Below are positions 26,173 to 33,368 of a DNA stretch of 57,256 nt, one piece after another. The stretch lies in contig CAZRDQ010000001.1 in NCBI GenBank assembly GCA_964598945.1, forward strand, positions 1 through 57,256, read 5' to 3'. Source of the stretch: an uncultured Candidatus Bathyarchaeia archaeon. GTDB lineage: Archaea > Thermoproteota > Bathyarchaeia > 40CM-2-53-6 > RBG-13-38-9. Under the pieces are notes generated by a model. That model saw only the letters and a program-made list of their open reading frames with translations, did not search any database and had not been told where the DNA came from. How positions within the stretch are numbered: position 1 is the stretch's first letter; each line of letters starts with the position of its first letter. The position numbers and the translations under genes were made by a program.

Positions 26173-27426
26173 TTGAACATACTGACTCTCAACTGTGGCA
26201 GCTCATCAGTCAAGTACTCGCTCTGGGATATGCGTAAGTTTCAGAAGATCTCAAGCGGCATTGTGGAACGTATCGGACTTGAGGGGGCATTCATAGAACA
26301 TCAGACCATGAGCGACTCCCCTGTAAGACTGAAACGGTCTGTGGCCGATCATTCTGAAGCAATCAGTCTGGTGCTGGGACTGACCAAGGCGCCTCTTGTG
26401 TCTGAAAACCATAGCCGCAAGATCGATGCAGTCGCTCACAGAATAGTCCATGGAGGCGACAAGCTGGTACACTCAACGATCATCGACGAGAAGGTCAAGT
26501 CAGAGATCTCAAAGTGTAGTGAACTCGCCCCCCTGCATAACCCTCCCAACCTAGTTGGGCTGGAATCAGCGATGAAGCTTCTGCCTCAAGTCCCTCACGT
26601 AGGCATCTTTGATACTGCCTTCCTTTCAACAATTCCTTCACATGTCTACACTTACGCTATACCAAAGGAATGGACGCAGTCATACGGAGTTCGACGCTAT
26701 GGCTTTCATGGAACGTCACATCTCTATGTGAGTAGAAGAACTGCTGCGCACCTCGGCAGGCCTTACAGCCAGGTCAACATGATCACTCTGCACATCGGAA
26801 ACGGCGTCAGTGTCACAGCGATCAAGCGCGGCTTGGCTTATGACCACAGCATGGGATTCACTCCGCTTGAAGGGGCTGTGATGGGAACTCGTTGTGGGGA
26901 TCTTGACCCAGCCATTCCACTGTACCTTATGCGAAAGCTGAACTTGACATCTGAACAGATGGAGGATGCGCTTAACCGAAAGAGCGGTCTTCTAGGGATT
27001 ACACAGAGATACTCCGATCGAAGAGACATTCTCAGGGGTGTTGATTCAGGAGATGAAGACTGCAAACTAGCTTTTGAAGTCGAATGCTACAGGCTCAAGA
27101 AATACATAGGGTCATACGCAGCAGCCCTCGGCCAACTTGACGCGATCACATTTACAGGCGGCACAGGCGAGCGGGCTCCGCGATACAGGGAGACCATCTG
27201 TTCAGGACTCGAACAGCTTGCTATACAGATTGACAAAGAGAGAAACGACAAAGCCTCAGGGGAAAGTGAGAGCGAGATAAGCAGCGACTCCTCAAGAACC
27301 AAAGTCTTTGTTATCCCTACTAATGAGGAGTTAGTGTTCGCTGAGGACGCGGCTGCTCTCTTGGAGGGCAGGTACGCGCCGCACTGGAAGTTCAGGTATT
27401 CATTCGAGAACAGAGTCAACGATTAG
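26173..27426 (+). CDS. ackA: Acetate kinase
   Basis: 417 aa with a TTG start. ILTLNCGSSSVKYSLW, HRIVHGG, NPPNL, RRYGFHGTSH and VIPTNEELV are canonical AckA blocks. Confidence 0.9.
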   Translation: MNILTLNCGSSSVKYSLWDMRKFQKISSGIVERIGLEGAFIEHQTMSDSPVRLKRSVADHSEAISLVLGLTKAPLVSENHSRKIDAVAHRIVHGGDKLVHSTIIDEKVKSEISKCSELAPLHNPPNLVGLESAMKLLPQVPHVGIFDTAFLSTIPSHVYTYAIPKEWTQSYGVRRYGFHGTSHLYVSRRTAAHLGRPYSQVNMITLHIGNGVSVTAIKRGLAYDHSMGFTPLEGAVMGTRCGDLDPAIPLYLMRKLNLTSEQMEDALNRKSGLLGITQRYSDRRDILRGVDSGDEDCKLAFEVECYRLKKYIGSYAAALGQLDAITFTGGTGERAPRYRETICSGLEQLAIQIDKERNDKASGESESEISSDSSRTKVFVIPTNEELVFAEDAAALLEGRYAPHWKFRYSFENRVND

Positions 27427-27573
27427 CCAGGATCGCGGAATCATCAAGAAGAGAAGGTGAGTGAACTGTCGCTCAGACCGCTTCTGTATGAGATAGGCCA
27501 GACTACCGCTTATTCAGCGTTCTGCCACTGAATGACACTCACCTTGCGGCCTATCTGGATGCGGCATTGTGAT

Positions 27574-30252
27574 CTACTCTGAACCGACCATCTCAAGCTT
27601 TGCAGGCAGATACTCATCAACTATGTACGTGAGGCCGTATCTGCTGAAGGCCTCCTGCTCAGCCTTCTTTTTGATCTTCATGAAAGTCTTGATCTCTCTA
27701 TTCCAGAGTTTGCCCTCGTATCTGGGGTCTTTCTTCAGTTCATAGAGCCTCTTGATATCCAGTTCAGTAAGTTTGTCGCTGGGAAGCTTGTACTCGACTA
27801 TATCCGAATTGTGAAGTACAATACCTCCAAGTCCTCCAACGAAAGTGTGGTCATTCGAGACCTCGATATCATACACGTCTGTTGGCGACATCATGCTCAA
27901 ACGTCTCTTTTCGACTAGCGGTAAGAGTACGACCCTGTTTTCGACAAGTGCTCTAATCGTTTCTATGTACCGGTTGTTTTTGTGTGGGATCGTATTCAAG
28001 ATCTCTTTGAGTTTCGCATAGCCCACCCTCGCTTTTGTACCGTTGGTGAAGAGCTTATTGTGGATCTGCGTCCTCTTTCCGTATGGCGCTGCACTTTTGA
28101 TTTGATGGCGCAGTGGATATACGATGTCTCCGGGCATAGAAAGAAGCTTGGAGTTGACTTTCACAGTCCTTCCGCAGAGCTCGTCAACCACTTCTTGTAT
28201 GCGCTCTGTGTTTGCGAGGGCAACGACATAGTATTCTCCCTGTTTGTAAGTGTAGGCCACGCAGTCTAGCTGGCGGAGTAAGACAACGAGATCCGCTGCA
28301 AGAAGTCTACTTACCGTCTTTGCGGCTAAGCGGGTGTTCTCTCTGTAGTTGATCATCCTGTCTCCTCTGAAATACCCTCGCAAGAACTCGATCTTGAATC
28401 TGTCGGGAACATTGAACATAATGTACGGGACTCGTCTGTCGTAAACGTTCTTTCCCGAAGCAAGCACTTCCGAGATGACTCTAGCCAGTAGAGTTCCGCC
28501 GTATCTTATTCGAACCTTGCTTCTGAAGCGTTCGATCTTGGGTTTGAGCCTGAAAATGCGCTGGACGCAGTTCACCGCATCTTTGACATAGCTCATCTCT
28601 GACAGGGAGAAAGTCAGTTCGCAACAGGATCCTCTCTTCCCACCAGAGAGCCCCCCTTCGGCAACGTGATACCCCAGGAGTCTGGCGAGTTGTCTGGTTA
28701 TCGGGAGAACGACTGGAATGTCGTGTCTACTATAGCGTAGCCGGAGGGATCCACCAGTAGGCAACCGACCCTCCTTTCTAAAGTATGATAACTTGGTGGT
28801 CTCACTATTTCGGAGCGTCGGATATTCGGAACGTACCTTCTTCTTTTCGTATTTCGATCTGATCTCCTTTGCAAGAGCCCGCGATTCTTCTCCCATAACA
28901 AACAGATTACCATCAGGAATCAGACCCTCCCTCAATATCATCTCTGCAATATTCACTGAGGTCAGTGATTCATTGTTTGGAACACGGAAGCAACTTGCTA
29001 AGAGTTCACCTTCACGAAGCTCAGAGACCGGCTTTGACTGCAACTCATAAGTTCGAAGATCAAAGACTTGCACGCTGTGATTCCCAGTGGTCTTGACCCT
29101 GTATCCCCCAGCCGAGACTAGCTCATAAATAGGCTCATCATACTTGTGGCGCAGAACCCCAGAGATCTGTCTCATAGAGATCTTGCCATTTGAATCGCAG
29201 CAGAGCGCTTGGATACCCACGCCACCGTCCAAGAAAACAGCTCTATCACCATTAGAAACAATTATTGGATCGACAATTCTGGAGATCGGCTCATTTCTGA
29301 TAAGTCCGCCCTTAGATACGATGACCGGCTCATCACCCGTTATCGAAGCCCACACGCCGAACCACTTCGCATCGGGCGTGTTCAAGTCTCGCAGATGGGC
29401 TGCATTTGCTGAGCCTGATATTATCACCATGGCGATGTGCATTCCCCACGGGTCCCCATCAGTAAACAGGTAGCAGGGAAGATCAAGCTCCTGGTTGAGT
29501 CTTCTGAGGAAACCTCTTGTTGCTCTTGGCGCTTGGCCTGCGGTATGTATGAGTAGGGCCTTGTGTTTTGTATGTACCTTCTCCTCGATGAATCTAGTGA
29601 AGAGGCCGCCTTTCTCTATGGCTATGACTTTGTCTGCTTTGCAGCCGACGAACTCTGCGCTTGTGAGGGCCGGGCCTATCATCATTCCGTCCGGGTGAGA
29701 AGTCAGGTTGAGTTTTCGTCCTTCATATCCTGGGAGGGTGTACTCCACAGTGAGGTCGCCGAAGATCGCGCTCCGCTCTTCAGGGAAGACGTTGAAGTCC
29801 TCTCTTGAGTATCCTAGCACCGTCTCTAGTTCTGTGATGAGGTTGTCGCTCTCCTGCTGGTCTGTGAAGCTCATCTCATATGCTTGGGCTGAGTAGAAGA
29901 CATCCCTGAGGGTGCTGGTCTTGCTCTGTCTGGTCAGCTCATCTGCGAACATCCCTGTCCAGGCAAGCTGTGTCAGTGGCTTTATGTGTCTGACATTTCT
30001 TGAGCTTCGCTTCACACTCTTGTTTCCCAGGACGTACTGCCGGAGCTTCTGGTCGTAGAATATGTTGTTGATGGATCTGCTCGGCATCTTTACCCATGGG
30101 AACTCTCCGGAGGCTATCTGGCTGTAGACCTTGCTTCCGAAGTCTTGCAGGGAGGCGAGGACCTTCTCCTTCCTCTCTCTAATGGCTCCCTTCGGCTCCT
30201 TCGGTCCCTTCGTTTCCTTCTTTTTCGCTCTCTTTCGTTCCTTCTTCGACAT
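27574..30252 (-). CDS. top6A: DNA topoisomerase VI subunit A (Spo11 homolog) interrupted by an intein
   Basis: The exteins total 379 aa. They include TLRDVFY (catalytic Tyr region), the Toprim blocks IAIEKGG and LFTDGDPWG, and the C-terminus KAEQEAF. A 513-aa insert lies between GVWA and SDIVEYKLP. Confidence 0.9.
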   Translation of the reverse strand: MSKKERKRAKKKETKGPKEPKGAIRERKEKVLASLQDFGSKVYSQIASGEFPWVKMPSRSINNIFYDQKLRQYVLGNKSVKRSSRNVRHIKPLTQLAWTGMFADELTRQSKTSTLRDVFYSAQAYEMSFTDQQESDNLITELETVLGYSREDFNVFPEERSAIFGDLTVEYTLPGYEGRKLNLTSHPDGMMIGPALTSAEFVGCKADKVIAIEKGGLFTRFIEEKVHTKHKALLIHTAGQAPRATRGFLRRLNQELDLPCYLFTDGDPWGMHIAMVIISGSANAAHLRDLNTPDAKWFGVWASITGDEPVIVSKGGLIRNEPISRIVDPIIVSNGDRAVFLDGGVGIQALCCDSNGKISMRQISGVLRHKYDEPIYELVSAGGYRVKTTGNHSVQVFDLRTYELQSKPVSELREGELLASCFRVPNNESLTSVNIAEMILREGLIPDGNLFVMGEESRALAKEIRSKYEKKKVRSEYPTLRNSETTKLSYFRKEGRLPTGGSLRLRYSRHDIPVVLPITRQLARLLGYHVAEGGLSGGKRGSCCELTFSLSEMSYVKDAVNCVQRIFRLKPKIERFRSKVRIRYGGTLLARVISEVLASGKNVYDRRVPYIMFNVPDRFKIEFLRGYFRGDRMINYRENTRLAAKTVSRLLAADLVVLLRQLDCVAYTYKQGEYYVVALANTERIQEVVDELCGRTVKVNSKLLSMPGDIVYPLRHQIKSAAPYGKRTQIHNKLFTNGTKARVGYAKLKEILNTIPHKNNRYIETIRALVENRVVLLPLVEKRRLSMMSPTDVYDIEVSNDHTFVGGLGGIVLHNSDIVEYKLPSDKLTELDIKRLYELKKDPRYEGKLWNREIKTFMKIKKKAEQEAFSRYGLTYIVDEYLPAKLEMVGSE
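27808..29346 (-). mobile_element. Intein with a LAGLIDADG homing-endonuclease domain inside top6A
   Basis: Block A is SITGDEPVIV (Ser1) and block B is TTGNHSV. The LAGLIDADG motifs are LLGYHVAEGG and FLRGYFRGDR. Block F is VYDIEVSNDHTFV and block G is GIVLHN, followed by Ser+1. Confidence 0.85.
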
Positions 30253-31766
30253 ACTTCACAATGCTCCTTAGAAGCTTCTTGACGTCCGGAACCTTCTCTT
30301 TCTTCGCCAGTCTGGCTGAGAATGTGGCGATCTTCGGCAGGTACTTTGAGAAGACATCAAGACGCTTCCTCTCCCTCTCCATGTGGTGTTTCCTTGATAA
30401 GAAGATCGCCAGCTGCCTTGCAACCTCTCTCAGAGCGTTCAGGATTTCATGCTCCACCTCAGGTCTGTCCGCTATGAACTCCTTGCCAACTGTCTTGTAT
30501 GGGATCTTGAGGCTGCAGATATGGATAAAGACCGCCAGTGGAGTATCGGGCAGGACCTTGTAGTGCCGCCAGTTCATAAGTTCGTTCGCGACTTTGTATG
30601 AGACATCGCTCGCCTCATCGAATAGCAGCGGGATCCTGTTCGCGAATCGATAGAGAAGGATCCCGTCCGGCCGCAGTATCTCGCCCCCATGTGCTACGCC
30701 GGCTTCAACTATGAATGGAAAACCTGAGTATGCTGCTGGTCTCCTCTGGTGGACAGCGACGAACTCTGGGTTGAGCTCTTTCTTGATCCCGGTCTTCAGA
30801 AGCTCAGTTCCCAGAGGGGAGAGGCAGCTGGCGTCGGGTGAGAGAAATCCGTCATAGTTCTTGATCGCGTTAACCAGCTTCACAATCTCATCCCGTGTGA
30901 GTTTCTTCGGATTCTTTCTTTCTCCAACATCGGCAAACTCCAGGAACCTTTTTGCTGTTGTCTCGCCGACTCGCTGGAAGTGTCGCTTCATAAAGTCCCT
31001 CATGGATCTTGATCTGGTCGCTTCAATCATCCTCTTGAGCGTCTCGATGTCGATTCCATGAGGATGCGGCGAGGTCTCAGTGGGCGGCTTGGGCATCAGG
31101 GTCGTGGCCCTATCAAACTTGTACAACCTGCCCCTTGGATCGACGAATGTCAGGTTGGCATAGGGCACAACTATCGCGGTCTGTTTCAGATAGTCAAGTA
31201 TCTTAGGCATCGCTCTCGGATAGTCGGCTTCGGTGGTGAACTCCACGACGGTCCCATGCCACTTGGACTTGTTGCTATGCACCTTATGCTTGACGACTAT
31301 CGGTCTGTTCTTCTGGATATCCATCGTTAGTAGGTACTCGTACATCTTTGAGGTGCCTATGCCTGAGATGATCCTTGTCTGGCCGTGGGTTGTGATCTGT
31401 CCGTAGAGCACGGCCATCTTCCCGCCCAGACCGAAGGTCCCGCGGGTCTGCCTAAGCTTGTACTTGGAGCCAAAAAGTACCTGGCCGAATGCTGAAGGGA
31501 TAACCTCAGAGGGCAAGCCTGACCCATTATCCTCAACTCTGATCCTATACACGCAGGGGTCTGCGGCCGTCTCTGACTCCGGAGACATTCGGATGTATAT
31601 GTCTGGCAGTATTCCGTGAATCTCACAAGCATCCAGAGAATTCTCAACAAGCTCCCTGATCGTTGAGTATACCGCTCTGGAAGGATTCGTGAAACCTGCA
31701 ATATCCCTATTCCGATAGAAAAAAGTCTGAGGGGCTGATTTCCCTGAACTCCTCAGTCGTCATCAT
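30179..31766 (-). CDS. top6B: DNA topoisomerase VI subunit B; the frame is broken by one extra T in a T6 run (31719-31724)
   Basis: The track ORF (469 aa, starting at 31588) lacks the ATP-binding N-box. In the same frame upstream I read FFYRNRDIAGFTNPSRAVYSTIRELVENSLDA. ATG 31766 gives MMTTEEFREISPSDFF in the neighbouring frame. Deleting one T fuses them into a roughly 528-aa Top6B. Confidence 0.8.
31722..31739. repeat. 18-bp direct repeat, copy 1 (AAAGTCTGAGGGGCTGAT), encoding ISPSDF of Top6B on the minus strand
   Basis: Identical string at 32697..32714, 975 nt away. Confidence 0.9.
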
Positions 31767-31775
31767 TCACCTCAT

Positions 31776-32768
31776 TCACGATGCTAACTCATCATACCAC
31801 TTTCTCAGTATACTAATCACCGAATCTCTTGTGAAGCAGTTTGCGAATAGACCCTCACATGAATGCTGCCTTCTATTTAGTTGTTCTTGATGGATTCGTA
31901 GCATCAGTTGAAGCAGTATAGCTTTCTGATGGCCATACCACAATCCAGTTCTGTTTTTCTTGCGCACAACTAAGGCTTCTTTTAAAAATCCAGCTTGTTT
32001 TGCAAAGGATCTCAATGCTGCTAATCCAGAGATCTTCACTCCATTTCGCGTTACATGAGCATGGATACCCAGATGAAGAAGCAACTCTGCTACTTGTTTG
32101 GTTATCATTGCATTTTGTGAGGCAACGAAAAGGTAGCTCTCGACTGTGTACTTGTGATATTTCGTCCTTCTTACTGAGACTATCGCGGAGCCTTCAGTGT
32201 CCGCGAAAATGCGCAGAACTTGAGAAGTCAACTTATGCGATGAAGTGATCGTAGTCATCATTTCTTCTGGAATTCCATTCTTTATGTTGTATGATTTCAG
32301 GTCTTCAGCGACTTGCACGTAACTGAGTCGGACCACATTTCCCGTTTCGTGAGCGCGAACTCCGTAGACCTGGTTTACTAGAGTTCCGAATCGTCTCCTT
32401 AAGTACTGAAGATTATTAGTGAACCCAACTTGATACCTGTAAATGTAACCTTCAGTGAGTATCATGATCAAGAGTCTTATTTTGGATGGTGTAAGCGTTT
32501 TTGAGGACGAAGGTATCTCATAAGGTGAATAGACGTTGCCGATGCGATAGCCCTGTCTGTAAAGCAATGAACCTGCTTCCGAGCGGGTCCGAAGTCGCAC
32601 CCCTTGCCCAAGTAGCTCCTTCCTGACTTTGCCATATGAATGCCCGCAAAGCTTGGTGATTCCATTGATGCTGTATCCAGAACGATACAGATCTGGAAAG
32701 TCTGAGGGGCTGATCTCCTGGAAGCTCTCAGACATCAGTTTTTTGCACCTGCCGTTGGGTTGCTCCAT
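31776..32768 (-). CDS. Free-standing LAGLIDADG homing endonuclease fused in frame to a copy of the first ~24 codons of top6B
   Basis: The N-terminus MSESFQEISPSDF is a Top6B N-terminus. An HTH-like segment LYRSGYSINGITKLCGHSYGKVRKELLGQGVRLR follows. The LAGLIDADG-type motifs are LLIMILTEGYIY and LRIFADTEGSAIV. The stop lies 8 nt before the GAGGTGA-ATGATG restart of top6B. Confidence 0.65.
   Translation of the reverse strand: MEQPNGRCKKLMSESFQEISPSDFPDLYRSGYSINGITKLCGHSYGKVRKELLGQGVRLRTRSEAGSLLYRQGYRIGNVYSPYEIPSSSKTLTPSKIRLLIMILTEGYIYRYQVGFTNNLQYLRRRFGTLVNQVYGVRAHETGNVVRLSYVQVAEDLKSYNIKNGIPEEMMTTITSSHKLTSQVLRIFADTEGSAIVSVRRTKYHKYTVESYLFVASQNAMITKQVAELLLHLGIHAHVTRNGVKISGLAALRSFAKQAGFLKEALVVRKKNRTGLWYGHQKAILLQLMLRIHQEQLNRRQHSCEGLFANCFTRDSVISILRKWYDELAS
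32697..32714. repeat. 18-bp direct repeat, copy 2
   Basis: Identical to 31722..31739. The flanks are related but diverged (TTCCAGGAG versus TTCAGGGAA). Confidence 0.9.
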
Positions 32769-32789
32769 GAGCTTGACGCTATCCTCCAG

Positions 32790-33368
32790 TTATTTCTCGC
32801 GAGGTTCCCACAGTTCAGTCATCTTCCTTATCTTCTCCTGTCGCCTGCGTTGTCTGAGGAACTTGTAGACGGTTGAGTGTTGCTTACCCTCTATCAGCAT
32901 CATTATAGCGTCTCTGGCAGTAGAGGCGGATTCATAGTCTCCCGTGATGGATATTGTGTGACCGTAGATCGAGATGTTTGTCTTTGTGAGTTCTTCCAGC
33001 ATGTTCCTTGTCTTGCCTTGTTGGCCAATTATCCTACCTTTGATTCTTGATATGTCGCTTTCGCTCTTTCCAAAGACCTCCCGTAGGTCTATCACGTCAA
33101 GTATCATGTCTTCCTCTCTGAGCGCTAGCGCCTTATCCGGTGAGAAGCCTCTTCCTATCGCCGTCACGACGTCACGGGCCTTAAGCAGTGATGCCGCATC
33201 GCCCTCGTTGGGCATCGTGACAATCTCAACGAATCCACTTTCACTGTCGATGTTTATGGTGACTTTGAAGATCTTCTCTATTAGCCGTTTGACGCTGCCT
33301 TCTTCACCGACAAGAGCTCCAACTCTTTCAAGAGGAATTGTTGTGCTGAGCTTGTTCTGCACCTTCAC
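32790..33368 (-). CDS. Two-KH-domain RNA-binding protein (archaeal Dim2/Pno1 homolog)
   Basis: 192 aa with VGALVGEEGSVKR and GRIIGQQGKTRNMLE (GxxG KH loops). It sits in the conserved aIF1A-Rio1-Dim2 neighbourhood. Confidence 0.8.
   Translation of the reverse strand: MKVQNKLSTTIPLERVGALVGEEGSVKRLIEKIFKVTINIDSESGFVEIVTMPNEGDAASLLKARDVVTAIGRGFSPDKALALREEDMILDVIDLREVFGKSESDISRIKGRIIGQQGKTRNMLEELTKTNISIYGHTISITGDYESASTARDAIMMLIEGKQHSTVYKFLRQRRRQEKIRKMTELWEPREK

Follow-up and report, generated by a model that had tools for sequence, protein, structure and literature searches.

The gene for Top6A, the A subunit of topoisomerase VI (topo VI), in the archaeal DNA studied here is very probably interrupted, between Ala302 and Ser303 in the Toprim domain, by a canonical (class 1) intein with a LAGLIDADG homing endonuclease, and we propose that this intein both splices and homes. 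The window, by which we mean the whole stretch of DNA analyzed, comprises 57,256 nucleotides from an uncultured Candidatus Bathyarchaeia archaeon (assembly GCA_964598945.1, contig CAZRDQ010000001.1). Its top6A open reading frame (ORF) encodes a precursor of 892 residues, in which the insert runs from SITGDEP at residue 303 to VLHN at residue 815 and the two exteins join to a protein of 302 + 77 = 379 residues. An initial annotation, made from the sequence by itself, had placed a 513-residue intein at 27808..29346 with exteins of these lengths, and its limits proved exact to the base; blocks A, B, F, and G and both endonuclease motifs that it quoted are all present at the precursor residues listed here. 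It had also set the junction about 35 residues after the DGDPWG motif. The junction does lie downstream of that motif, at a distance of 32 residues.

27574..30252, minus strand: top6A precursor gene, 892 codons plus stop, from the ORF list, with the Pfam domains TP6A_N and TOP6A-Spo11_Toprim
29347..30252, minus strand: N-extein, residues 1-302, containing the winged-helix/catalytic-Tyr region and the first part of Toprim (Glu213, Asp265-x-Asp267)
29443..29460, minus strand: Toprim DGDPWG (DxD metal-binding motif) of the N-extein, residues 265-270, upstream of the junction
27808..29346, minus strand: intein, 513 residues, precursor residues 303-815, predicted Hint splicing domain with a LAGLIDADG endonuclease domain lodged in it
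29317..29346, minus strand: block A, SITGDEPVIV (Ser1 nucleophile), precursor residues 303-312
29071..29091, minus strand: block B, TTGNHSV (Thr87 and His90 in intein numbering), precursor residues 388-394
28651..28680, minus strand: first LAGLIDADG motif, LLGYHVAEGG (acidic Glu230), precursor residues 525-534
28357..28386, minus strand: second LAGLIDADG motif, FLRGYFRGDR (acidic Asp329), precursor residues 623-632
27838..27876, minus strand: block F, VYDIEVSNDHTFV (Asp493, His500), precursor residues 793-805
27808..27825, minus strand: block G, GIVLHN (His512-Asn513), precursor residues 810-815, followed by Ser+1 (Ser816) at 27805-27807
27577..27807, minus strand: C-extein, residues 816-892, which begins SDIVEYKLP and includes KKAEQEAF
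Reconstituted intein-less top6A site, 60 bp: CCCGATGCGAAGTGGTTCGGCGTGTGGGCT|TCGGATATAGTCGAGTACAAGCTTCCCAGC (the bar marks the insertion point)

Profile searches of the precursor identified PF04406 (TP6A_N) and the PF21180 Toprim domain, the latter split in two with its first stretch ending at residue 303. Between the Toprim halves we found the Pfam Intein_splicing domain (E = 2e-11) and LAGLIDADG_3 (E = 4.9e-5, above its cut-off), together with the NCBIfam models intein_Nterm TIGR01445 (29.8 bits against a cut-off of 24.5, residues 304-394) and intein_Cterm TIGR01443 (28.6 bits against a cut-off of 15.6, residues 792-816). The Toprim residues Glu213, Asp265, and Asp267 of Top6A are invariant, and the intein comes between the DxD motif of Toprim and a conserved C-terminal segment, KAEQEAF. 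Judged from its sequence, the insert is far beyond what would be expected by chance. An RNA element or intron at this locus was rejected, as an Rfam search of both strands of 27300..32900 found nothing.

The junction was examined by searching the precursor against 40 species genomes from the same order. In 38 of them the insert is absent, and the DNA passes directly from the match to query residue 303 into the match to residue 816; when the DNA of four intein-free relatives was read directly, the site was ...AKWFGVWA-TDIV(D/E)YKLP.... Among 120 intein-free Bathyarchaeial Top6A proteins, the residues at the site are A|S in 89 and A|T in 31, while the arrangement A|S1...HN|S+1 is found in all 28 proteins that have an intein at A302|S303. 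The spliced extein aligns with Methanosarcina mazei Top6A (2q2e) at 8e-64 over residues 16-377, and the M. mazei protein likewise reads SDIVEY at the junction point. The junction is clean, since the alignments with intein-free Top6A and with M. mazei Top6A are gapless exactly at Ser1 and HN/Ser+1. The same survey of the insertion site found it occupied by the same intein in G028, a genome of another family whose precursor shows 79% protein identity over its whole length. In G001, a genome of the same genus as the window, the A302|S303 site is empty and a different intein, 36% identical, lies about 39 codons upstream.

To assess the splicing residues, we compared 22 same-site inteins that are otherwise 28 to 80% identical. 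Ser1, Thr87, His90, Asp493, His500, His512, Asn513, and Ser+1 were invariant in all 22. AlphaFold2, given 31 aligned sequences, modeled the precursor with a predicted local distance difference test (pLDDT) score of about 80-95 over the intein segment. The best Foldseek matches in the PDB were PI-PkoII 2cw7 (E = 7.5e-29), TliVMA 7qss, PhoVMA, and PI-PfuI 1dq3, followed by PI-SceI; I-DmoI matched the endonuclease core, and the mini-inteins 5o9i and 4e2u matched the splicing domain. By sequence, too, the closest solved structure is PI-PkoII (8e-17). The Hint fold is thus present in the modeled insert, and, as far as its residues tell, the intein is apparently functional in splicing. The claim of a complete LAGLIDADG intein was therefore borne out by profiles, conservation, and predicted fold. 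The initial annotation had also singled out Ser at both splice junctions; this is true, but it is not special to the Top6A intein, because inteins of the related group start with Ser as a rule.

The state of topo VI in the genome bears on whether splicing is needed. The genome is 93% complete and has a single Top6A gene (the only PF21180 match), and no GyrA was found in it, which leaves topo VI as the sole type II topoisomerase detected. Given one Top6A, no GyrA, and strong purifying selection on the exteins, the precursor would have to splice to yield a working Top6A, and splicing is what we predict.

Comparison of the window with G028 supplied the measures of selection and of history. Nucleotide identity is 80% in the intein vs 71-75% in the exteins, and the synonymous divergence (dS) is 0.9 in the intein and saturated in the exteins. 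The ratio of nonsynonymous to synonymous divergence (dN/dS) is 0.12 for the whole intein and also 0.12 for the endonuclease core, so the intein, in its splicing and endonuclease parts alike, is under purifying selection (omega about 0.12). In the exteins, dN is 0.15 with dS saturated, which reflects strong purifying selection. Since the intein is more alike than the host genes (80% against 71-75% of nucleotides), the comparison indicates horizontal transfer of the intein between lineages. The window extein is closest, at 83-89% nucleotide identity, to intein-free relatives within its own family, and the reverse mismatch is seen in P0006, whose extein is 86% identical to that of the window and whose intein is just 53% identical. 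The similarities of intein and extein thus disagree in both G028 and P0006, and therefore the host gene and the intein have different histories. Differing histories of host and intein are the usual signature of homing. Within one genus, three states occur: the window intein at A302|S303, a different intein in G001, and no Top6A intein in G002. The G001 gene (C2:26331-29057) encodes a 915-residue Top6A with its intein at the DxD site (F263|T264). Co-conversion of the flanking extein was considered, since the 10 codons that follow the junction are 87% identical to those of G028, against 66-80% elsewhere, and was rejected, as the stretch is too short. A stop suspected inside the G028 copy was also discarded, the flagged TGA being the normal terminal stop of an intact 880-aa gene.

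We propose that the element follows the standard four-step pathway with oxygen nucleophiles, which is the most likely route given its residues. The 892-residue precursor would be translated whole. Ser1 would undergo an N-to-O acyl shift aided by Thr87 and His90, and the ester would then pass to the side chain of Ser+1 by transesterification. Cyclization of Asn513, aided by His512 and by Asp493 and His500 of block F, would release the intein, and an O-to-N shift would leave a normal 379-residue Top6A that reads ...GVWA-SDIVEY... across the joint. The freed 513-residue protein is expected to act as a monomeric two-motif LAGLIDADG endonuclease that cuts intein-less top6A at the GVWA|SDIV coding site, and repair of the cut empty allele would copy the intein in. 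Homing of this kind would explain the patchy spread of the intein through Bathyarchaeia and Nitrososphaerota.

For the endonuclease, both LAGLIDADG motifs retain their acidic residues, Glu230 and Asp329, and stand 98 residues apart. The model places helices at the first (520-532) and second (617-627) motifs, and in it the domain has the fold of a monomeric two-motif LAGLIDADG enzyme with paired alpha-beta-beta-alpha-beta-beta-alpha half-domains. Glu occupies the first-motif position in 17 of the 22 same-site relatives, and Asp or Glu the second in 18. Because both acidic residues are kept and the core dN/dS is as low as that given above, the endonuclease is probably active. A free-standing LAGLIDADG ORF lies beside top6B, and the initial annotation saw no obvious relationship between the two endonucleases. 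Indeed, BLASTP detected no similarity between them (best E = 0.14), and kinship was rejected.

Some observations weigh against an active, splicing, and homing intein. The adjacent top6B has an apparent frameshift, which puts the intactness of topo VI in the assembly in question. At the same site, the inteins of P0025, P0027, and P0031 have a decayed endonuclease (24-29% core identity) that has lost the acidic residues. Finally, the exteins were modeled poorly by AlphaFold2 (pLDDT <50 in many segments), and the model is uninformative on the whole precursor. The second of these is a reason to consider that the intein splices while its endonuclease is inactive, the element having reached a late stage of the homing cycle as a resident passed on by vertical descent alone. 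The presence of the element in only 2 of 41 genomes of the order would fit this picture as well. We regard it as unlikely, though it is the most serious of the alternatives: the window intein keeps Glu230 and Asp329, its endonuclease core has the same dN/dS as its splicing domain, and its lower synonymous divergence from the other-family copy, relative to that of the host gene, points to a fairly recent transfer.

The intein might also serve as a conditional switch besides being selfish, one in which splicing would respond to temperature, DNA, or some other signal and so set when active topo VI is made. Inteins do tend to gather at the active-site motifs of proteins that act in replication and topology, a regulatory role for inteins has been proposed (Novikova et al., PMC4760082), and the Top6A intein lies between the Toprim DxD and the C-terminal KAEQEAF segment. 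Its close relatives, however, mostly do without an intein, and the Ser/Ser junctions give no redox handle, so that we consider the switch improbable. A dead top6A, inactivated by a non-splicing insertion, with the top6B frameshift as part of the same decay, is very improbable. It would draw on the apparent +1 frameshift in a T6 run and the endonuclease cassette at the 5' end of top6B just upstream, but the 892-codon frame is fully open, the splicing residues are all intact and invariant, selection on the exteins is strongly purifying, the 93%-complete genome yielded neither a second Top6A nor a gyrase, and more than 28 independent assemblies preserve this architecture unbroken. That assembly or binning fused a foreign intein to the window top6A is extremely improbable: the source is a metagenome-assembled genome of 55 contigs with 3.8% contamination, yet each junction keeps the frame and coincides exactly with the splice residues, independent projects have recovered homologous inteins at this site in 12 other species genomes and about 35 protein clusters, and P0010 is an identical fragment in another assembly. 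A probably splicing and mobile intein remains the reading that we favor.

As to top6B itself, its real start is an ATG at 31766/31763 (region 31707-32768, minus strand), from which the frame runs into the T6 run; with one T fewer, the sequence would encode an uninterrupted Top6B N-terminus, ...SPSDFFYRNRDIAGF.... The neighboring ORF of 330 residues (31776..32768, minus strand), with LAGLIDADG and helix-turn-helix domains, starts with a near-copy of the top6B N-terminus (MSESFQEISPSDF vs MMTTEEFREISPSDF).

The distribution of Top6A inteins was examined in a survey of 5.8 billion proteins, in which the clusters were mapped on the spliced Top6A sequence. Intein-bearing Top6A made up 106 clusters, about 35 of them at A302|S303, and the inteins occupy at least five sites: R160|S161, F263|T264, D265|G266, G280|S281, and A302|S303. 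With one GTDB genome per species, the A302|S303 intein was found in 12 other species, all represented by metagenome-assembled Bathyarchaeia or Nitrososphaerota/'Thaumarchaeota'; no named or cultured carrier of the allele was found among them (12 of 12 genomes are metagenome-assembled). An exhaustive search of 1.84 billion representative proteins returned only three representative clusters for the A302|S303 intein family. The next matches came after a large gap and were inteins of geranylgeranyl-reductase-like proteins, XPD helicases, secretion ATPases, and FtsH, along with those at Top6A F263|T264.

A probable sixth site, E213|K214, appears in P0272, an 881-residue divergent Top6A. It falls right after the catalytic Toprim glutamate (..VIAIE|CLDADEP...THN|CGGMF..) and has Cys at both junctions. 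Two inteins each are present in the metagenomic Top6A proteins P0008, P0014, P0022, and P0028 (1148-1409 residues, mostly Nitrososphaerota), in the site pairs G280|S281 + A302|S303, D265|G266 + A302|S303, and R160|S161 + D265|G266. Stages of decay are visible among Top6A inteins, namely degenerate endonucleases (P0025, P0027, P0031) and mini-inteins; the latter, of 275-279 residues, occur at G280|S281 and D265|G266 (P0081 and the second intein of P0028). The related inteins P0228-P0328 (about 110, with many hosts, from uncultured archaea and some bacteria of the candidate phyla radiation) nearly all start with Ser (SV.GDEP or SVDY.EP), not Cys, and by their sequences they look like a large Ser1 intein lineage. 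The genome of the window (G000) contains about four more intein-bearing ORFs (846, 1060, 707, and 1010 residues), two of them with strong LAGLIDADG domains, located on its contigs at the following positions.

C12:4774-6117: further intein ORF
C13:14026-14997: further intein ORF
C13:23167-23364: further intein ORF
C14:2449-3846: further intein ORF

The origin of the A302|S303 allele was addressed with two trees. In a quick tree of 132 related inteins, those at A302|S303, F263|T264, and R160|S161 formed a group with no foreign host inside, supported by a value of 95 in the Shimodaira-Hasegawa-like approximate likelihood ratio test (SH-aLRT), while the G280|S281 and D265|G266 inteins were placed elsewhere. 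In a careful tree of 76 inteins, the A302|S303 clade received 100/100 and a wider group including the reductase inteins 100/99, and the three-site group was only moderately supported (ultrafast bootstrap 75, SH-aLRT 87). These topologies suggest that inteins entered Top6A independently on three or more occasions and that a site switch took place within the gene. We tentatively go further, with somewhat more doubt than belief, and propose that Top6A of uncultured archaea (Bathyarchaeia, Nitrososphaerota, Micrarchaeota, and relatives) may be an unrecognized intein hotspot, with five or six sites packed around the Toprim active site and colonized on at least three separate occasions, and that the A302|S303 intein may derive from the F263|T264 intein by a 39-codon move within the gene, not from another host protein. 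Because support in the careful tree is only 75/87, we treat intragenic site switching as a hypothesis. If true, this would document the shift of an intein from one insertion site to another within a single gene.

To our knowledge, InBase lists no Top6A allele. In the full-text literature, searched apart from InBase and the supplementary tables of PMC4760082, we found no named Top6A allele, and Top6A inteins were mentioned once, in a methods sentence of PMC9348778 stating that inteins were removed from Top6A/Top6B alignments. Published intein hosts include Top6B, TopA, GyrA/B, and reverse gyrase (PMC4760082, PMC4071816). The A302|S303 allele is thus apparently undescribed in print, yet it is common in sequence data and partly auto-annotated as 'intein/homing endonuclease'. 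The suggestion that it may be a new intein allele accordingly holds for the literature, which has no named Top6A allele, but not for the databases, where about 35 clusters share the site and some are already auto-annotated.

Annotation pipelines are affected as well. The window precursor scores 365 bits against the 424-bit cut-off of the NCBI Top6A equivalog model, and NCBIfam has intein-containing models for GyrA and Tes and none for Top6A. Intein-bearing Top6A proteins (P0006, P0008, P0018, P0040, P0052, and others) have been deposited as 'hypothetical protein'. Because the intein drops Top6A below NCBI family cut-offs and homologues are called hypothetical, topo VI may wrongly seem to be missing from such genomes.

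Taken together, these results describe what is, from its sequence, a real, well-formed, and probably active LAGLIDADG intein of modest interest, and they leave the understanding of intein mechanism unchanged. With it, Top6A, the archaeal homologue of the meiotic break-maker Spo11, joins the intein hosts, and the invaded sites are its catalytic Toprim motifs, in keeping with the established rule that inteins lodge in the best-conserved regions of enzymes that handle DNA. Lineages that are near intein-free in complete-genome surveys, such as the Thaumarchaeota, in which a single intein-bearing gene was found among 18 complete genomes (Turgeman-Grott 2023, PMC10643990), have many inteins in their uncultured members, double ones included. 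In practical terms, a Ser1/Ser+1 intein from a probably moderate-temperature archaeon, with a new LAGLIDADG specificity, could serve for protein ligation or as a rare-cutting nuclease.

Among comparable systems are the other Top6A inteins (R160|S161, F263|T264, D265|G266, G280|S281, and probably E213|K214), which share the host of the A302|S303 intein and are mostly Ser1 inteins with LAGLIDADG domains but differ in insertion point. Those at F263|T264 and R160|S161 are the nearest relatives of the A302|S303 intein (about 30-38% identity), whereas those at G280|S281 and D265|G266 belong to other intein lineages. The Top6B inteins of Haloarchaea (InBase top6B; Soucy 2014, PMC4071816; Novikova 2016, PMC4760082) reside in the same enzyme, topo VI, and show a sporadic distribution of the homing type, but they occupy the other subunit, the GHKL ATPase, in other lineages. 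Several close sites in a catalytic core, with two inteins in some alleles, are likewise known from haloarchaeal MCM (four sites; PMC10643990) and from PolB, although host protein and lineages differ from the Top6A case. In predicted fold, the Top6A intein best matches the large archaeal inteins PI-PkoII (the Thermococcus kodakarensis Pol-2 intein, 2cw7), PI-PfuI (1dq3), and TliVMA/PhoVMA (7qss, 7qst), with E = 7.5e-29 to 5.6e-18, and these too combine Hint, two-motif LAGLIDADG, and extra helical DNA-binding parts. It is nonetheless only 11-18% identical to PI-PkoII, PI-PfuI, and TliVMA/PhoVMA over the structural alignment, and their hosts are DNA polymerase B, ribonucleotide reductase, and V-ATPase of Thermococcales, with none reported in Top6A.

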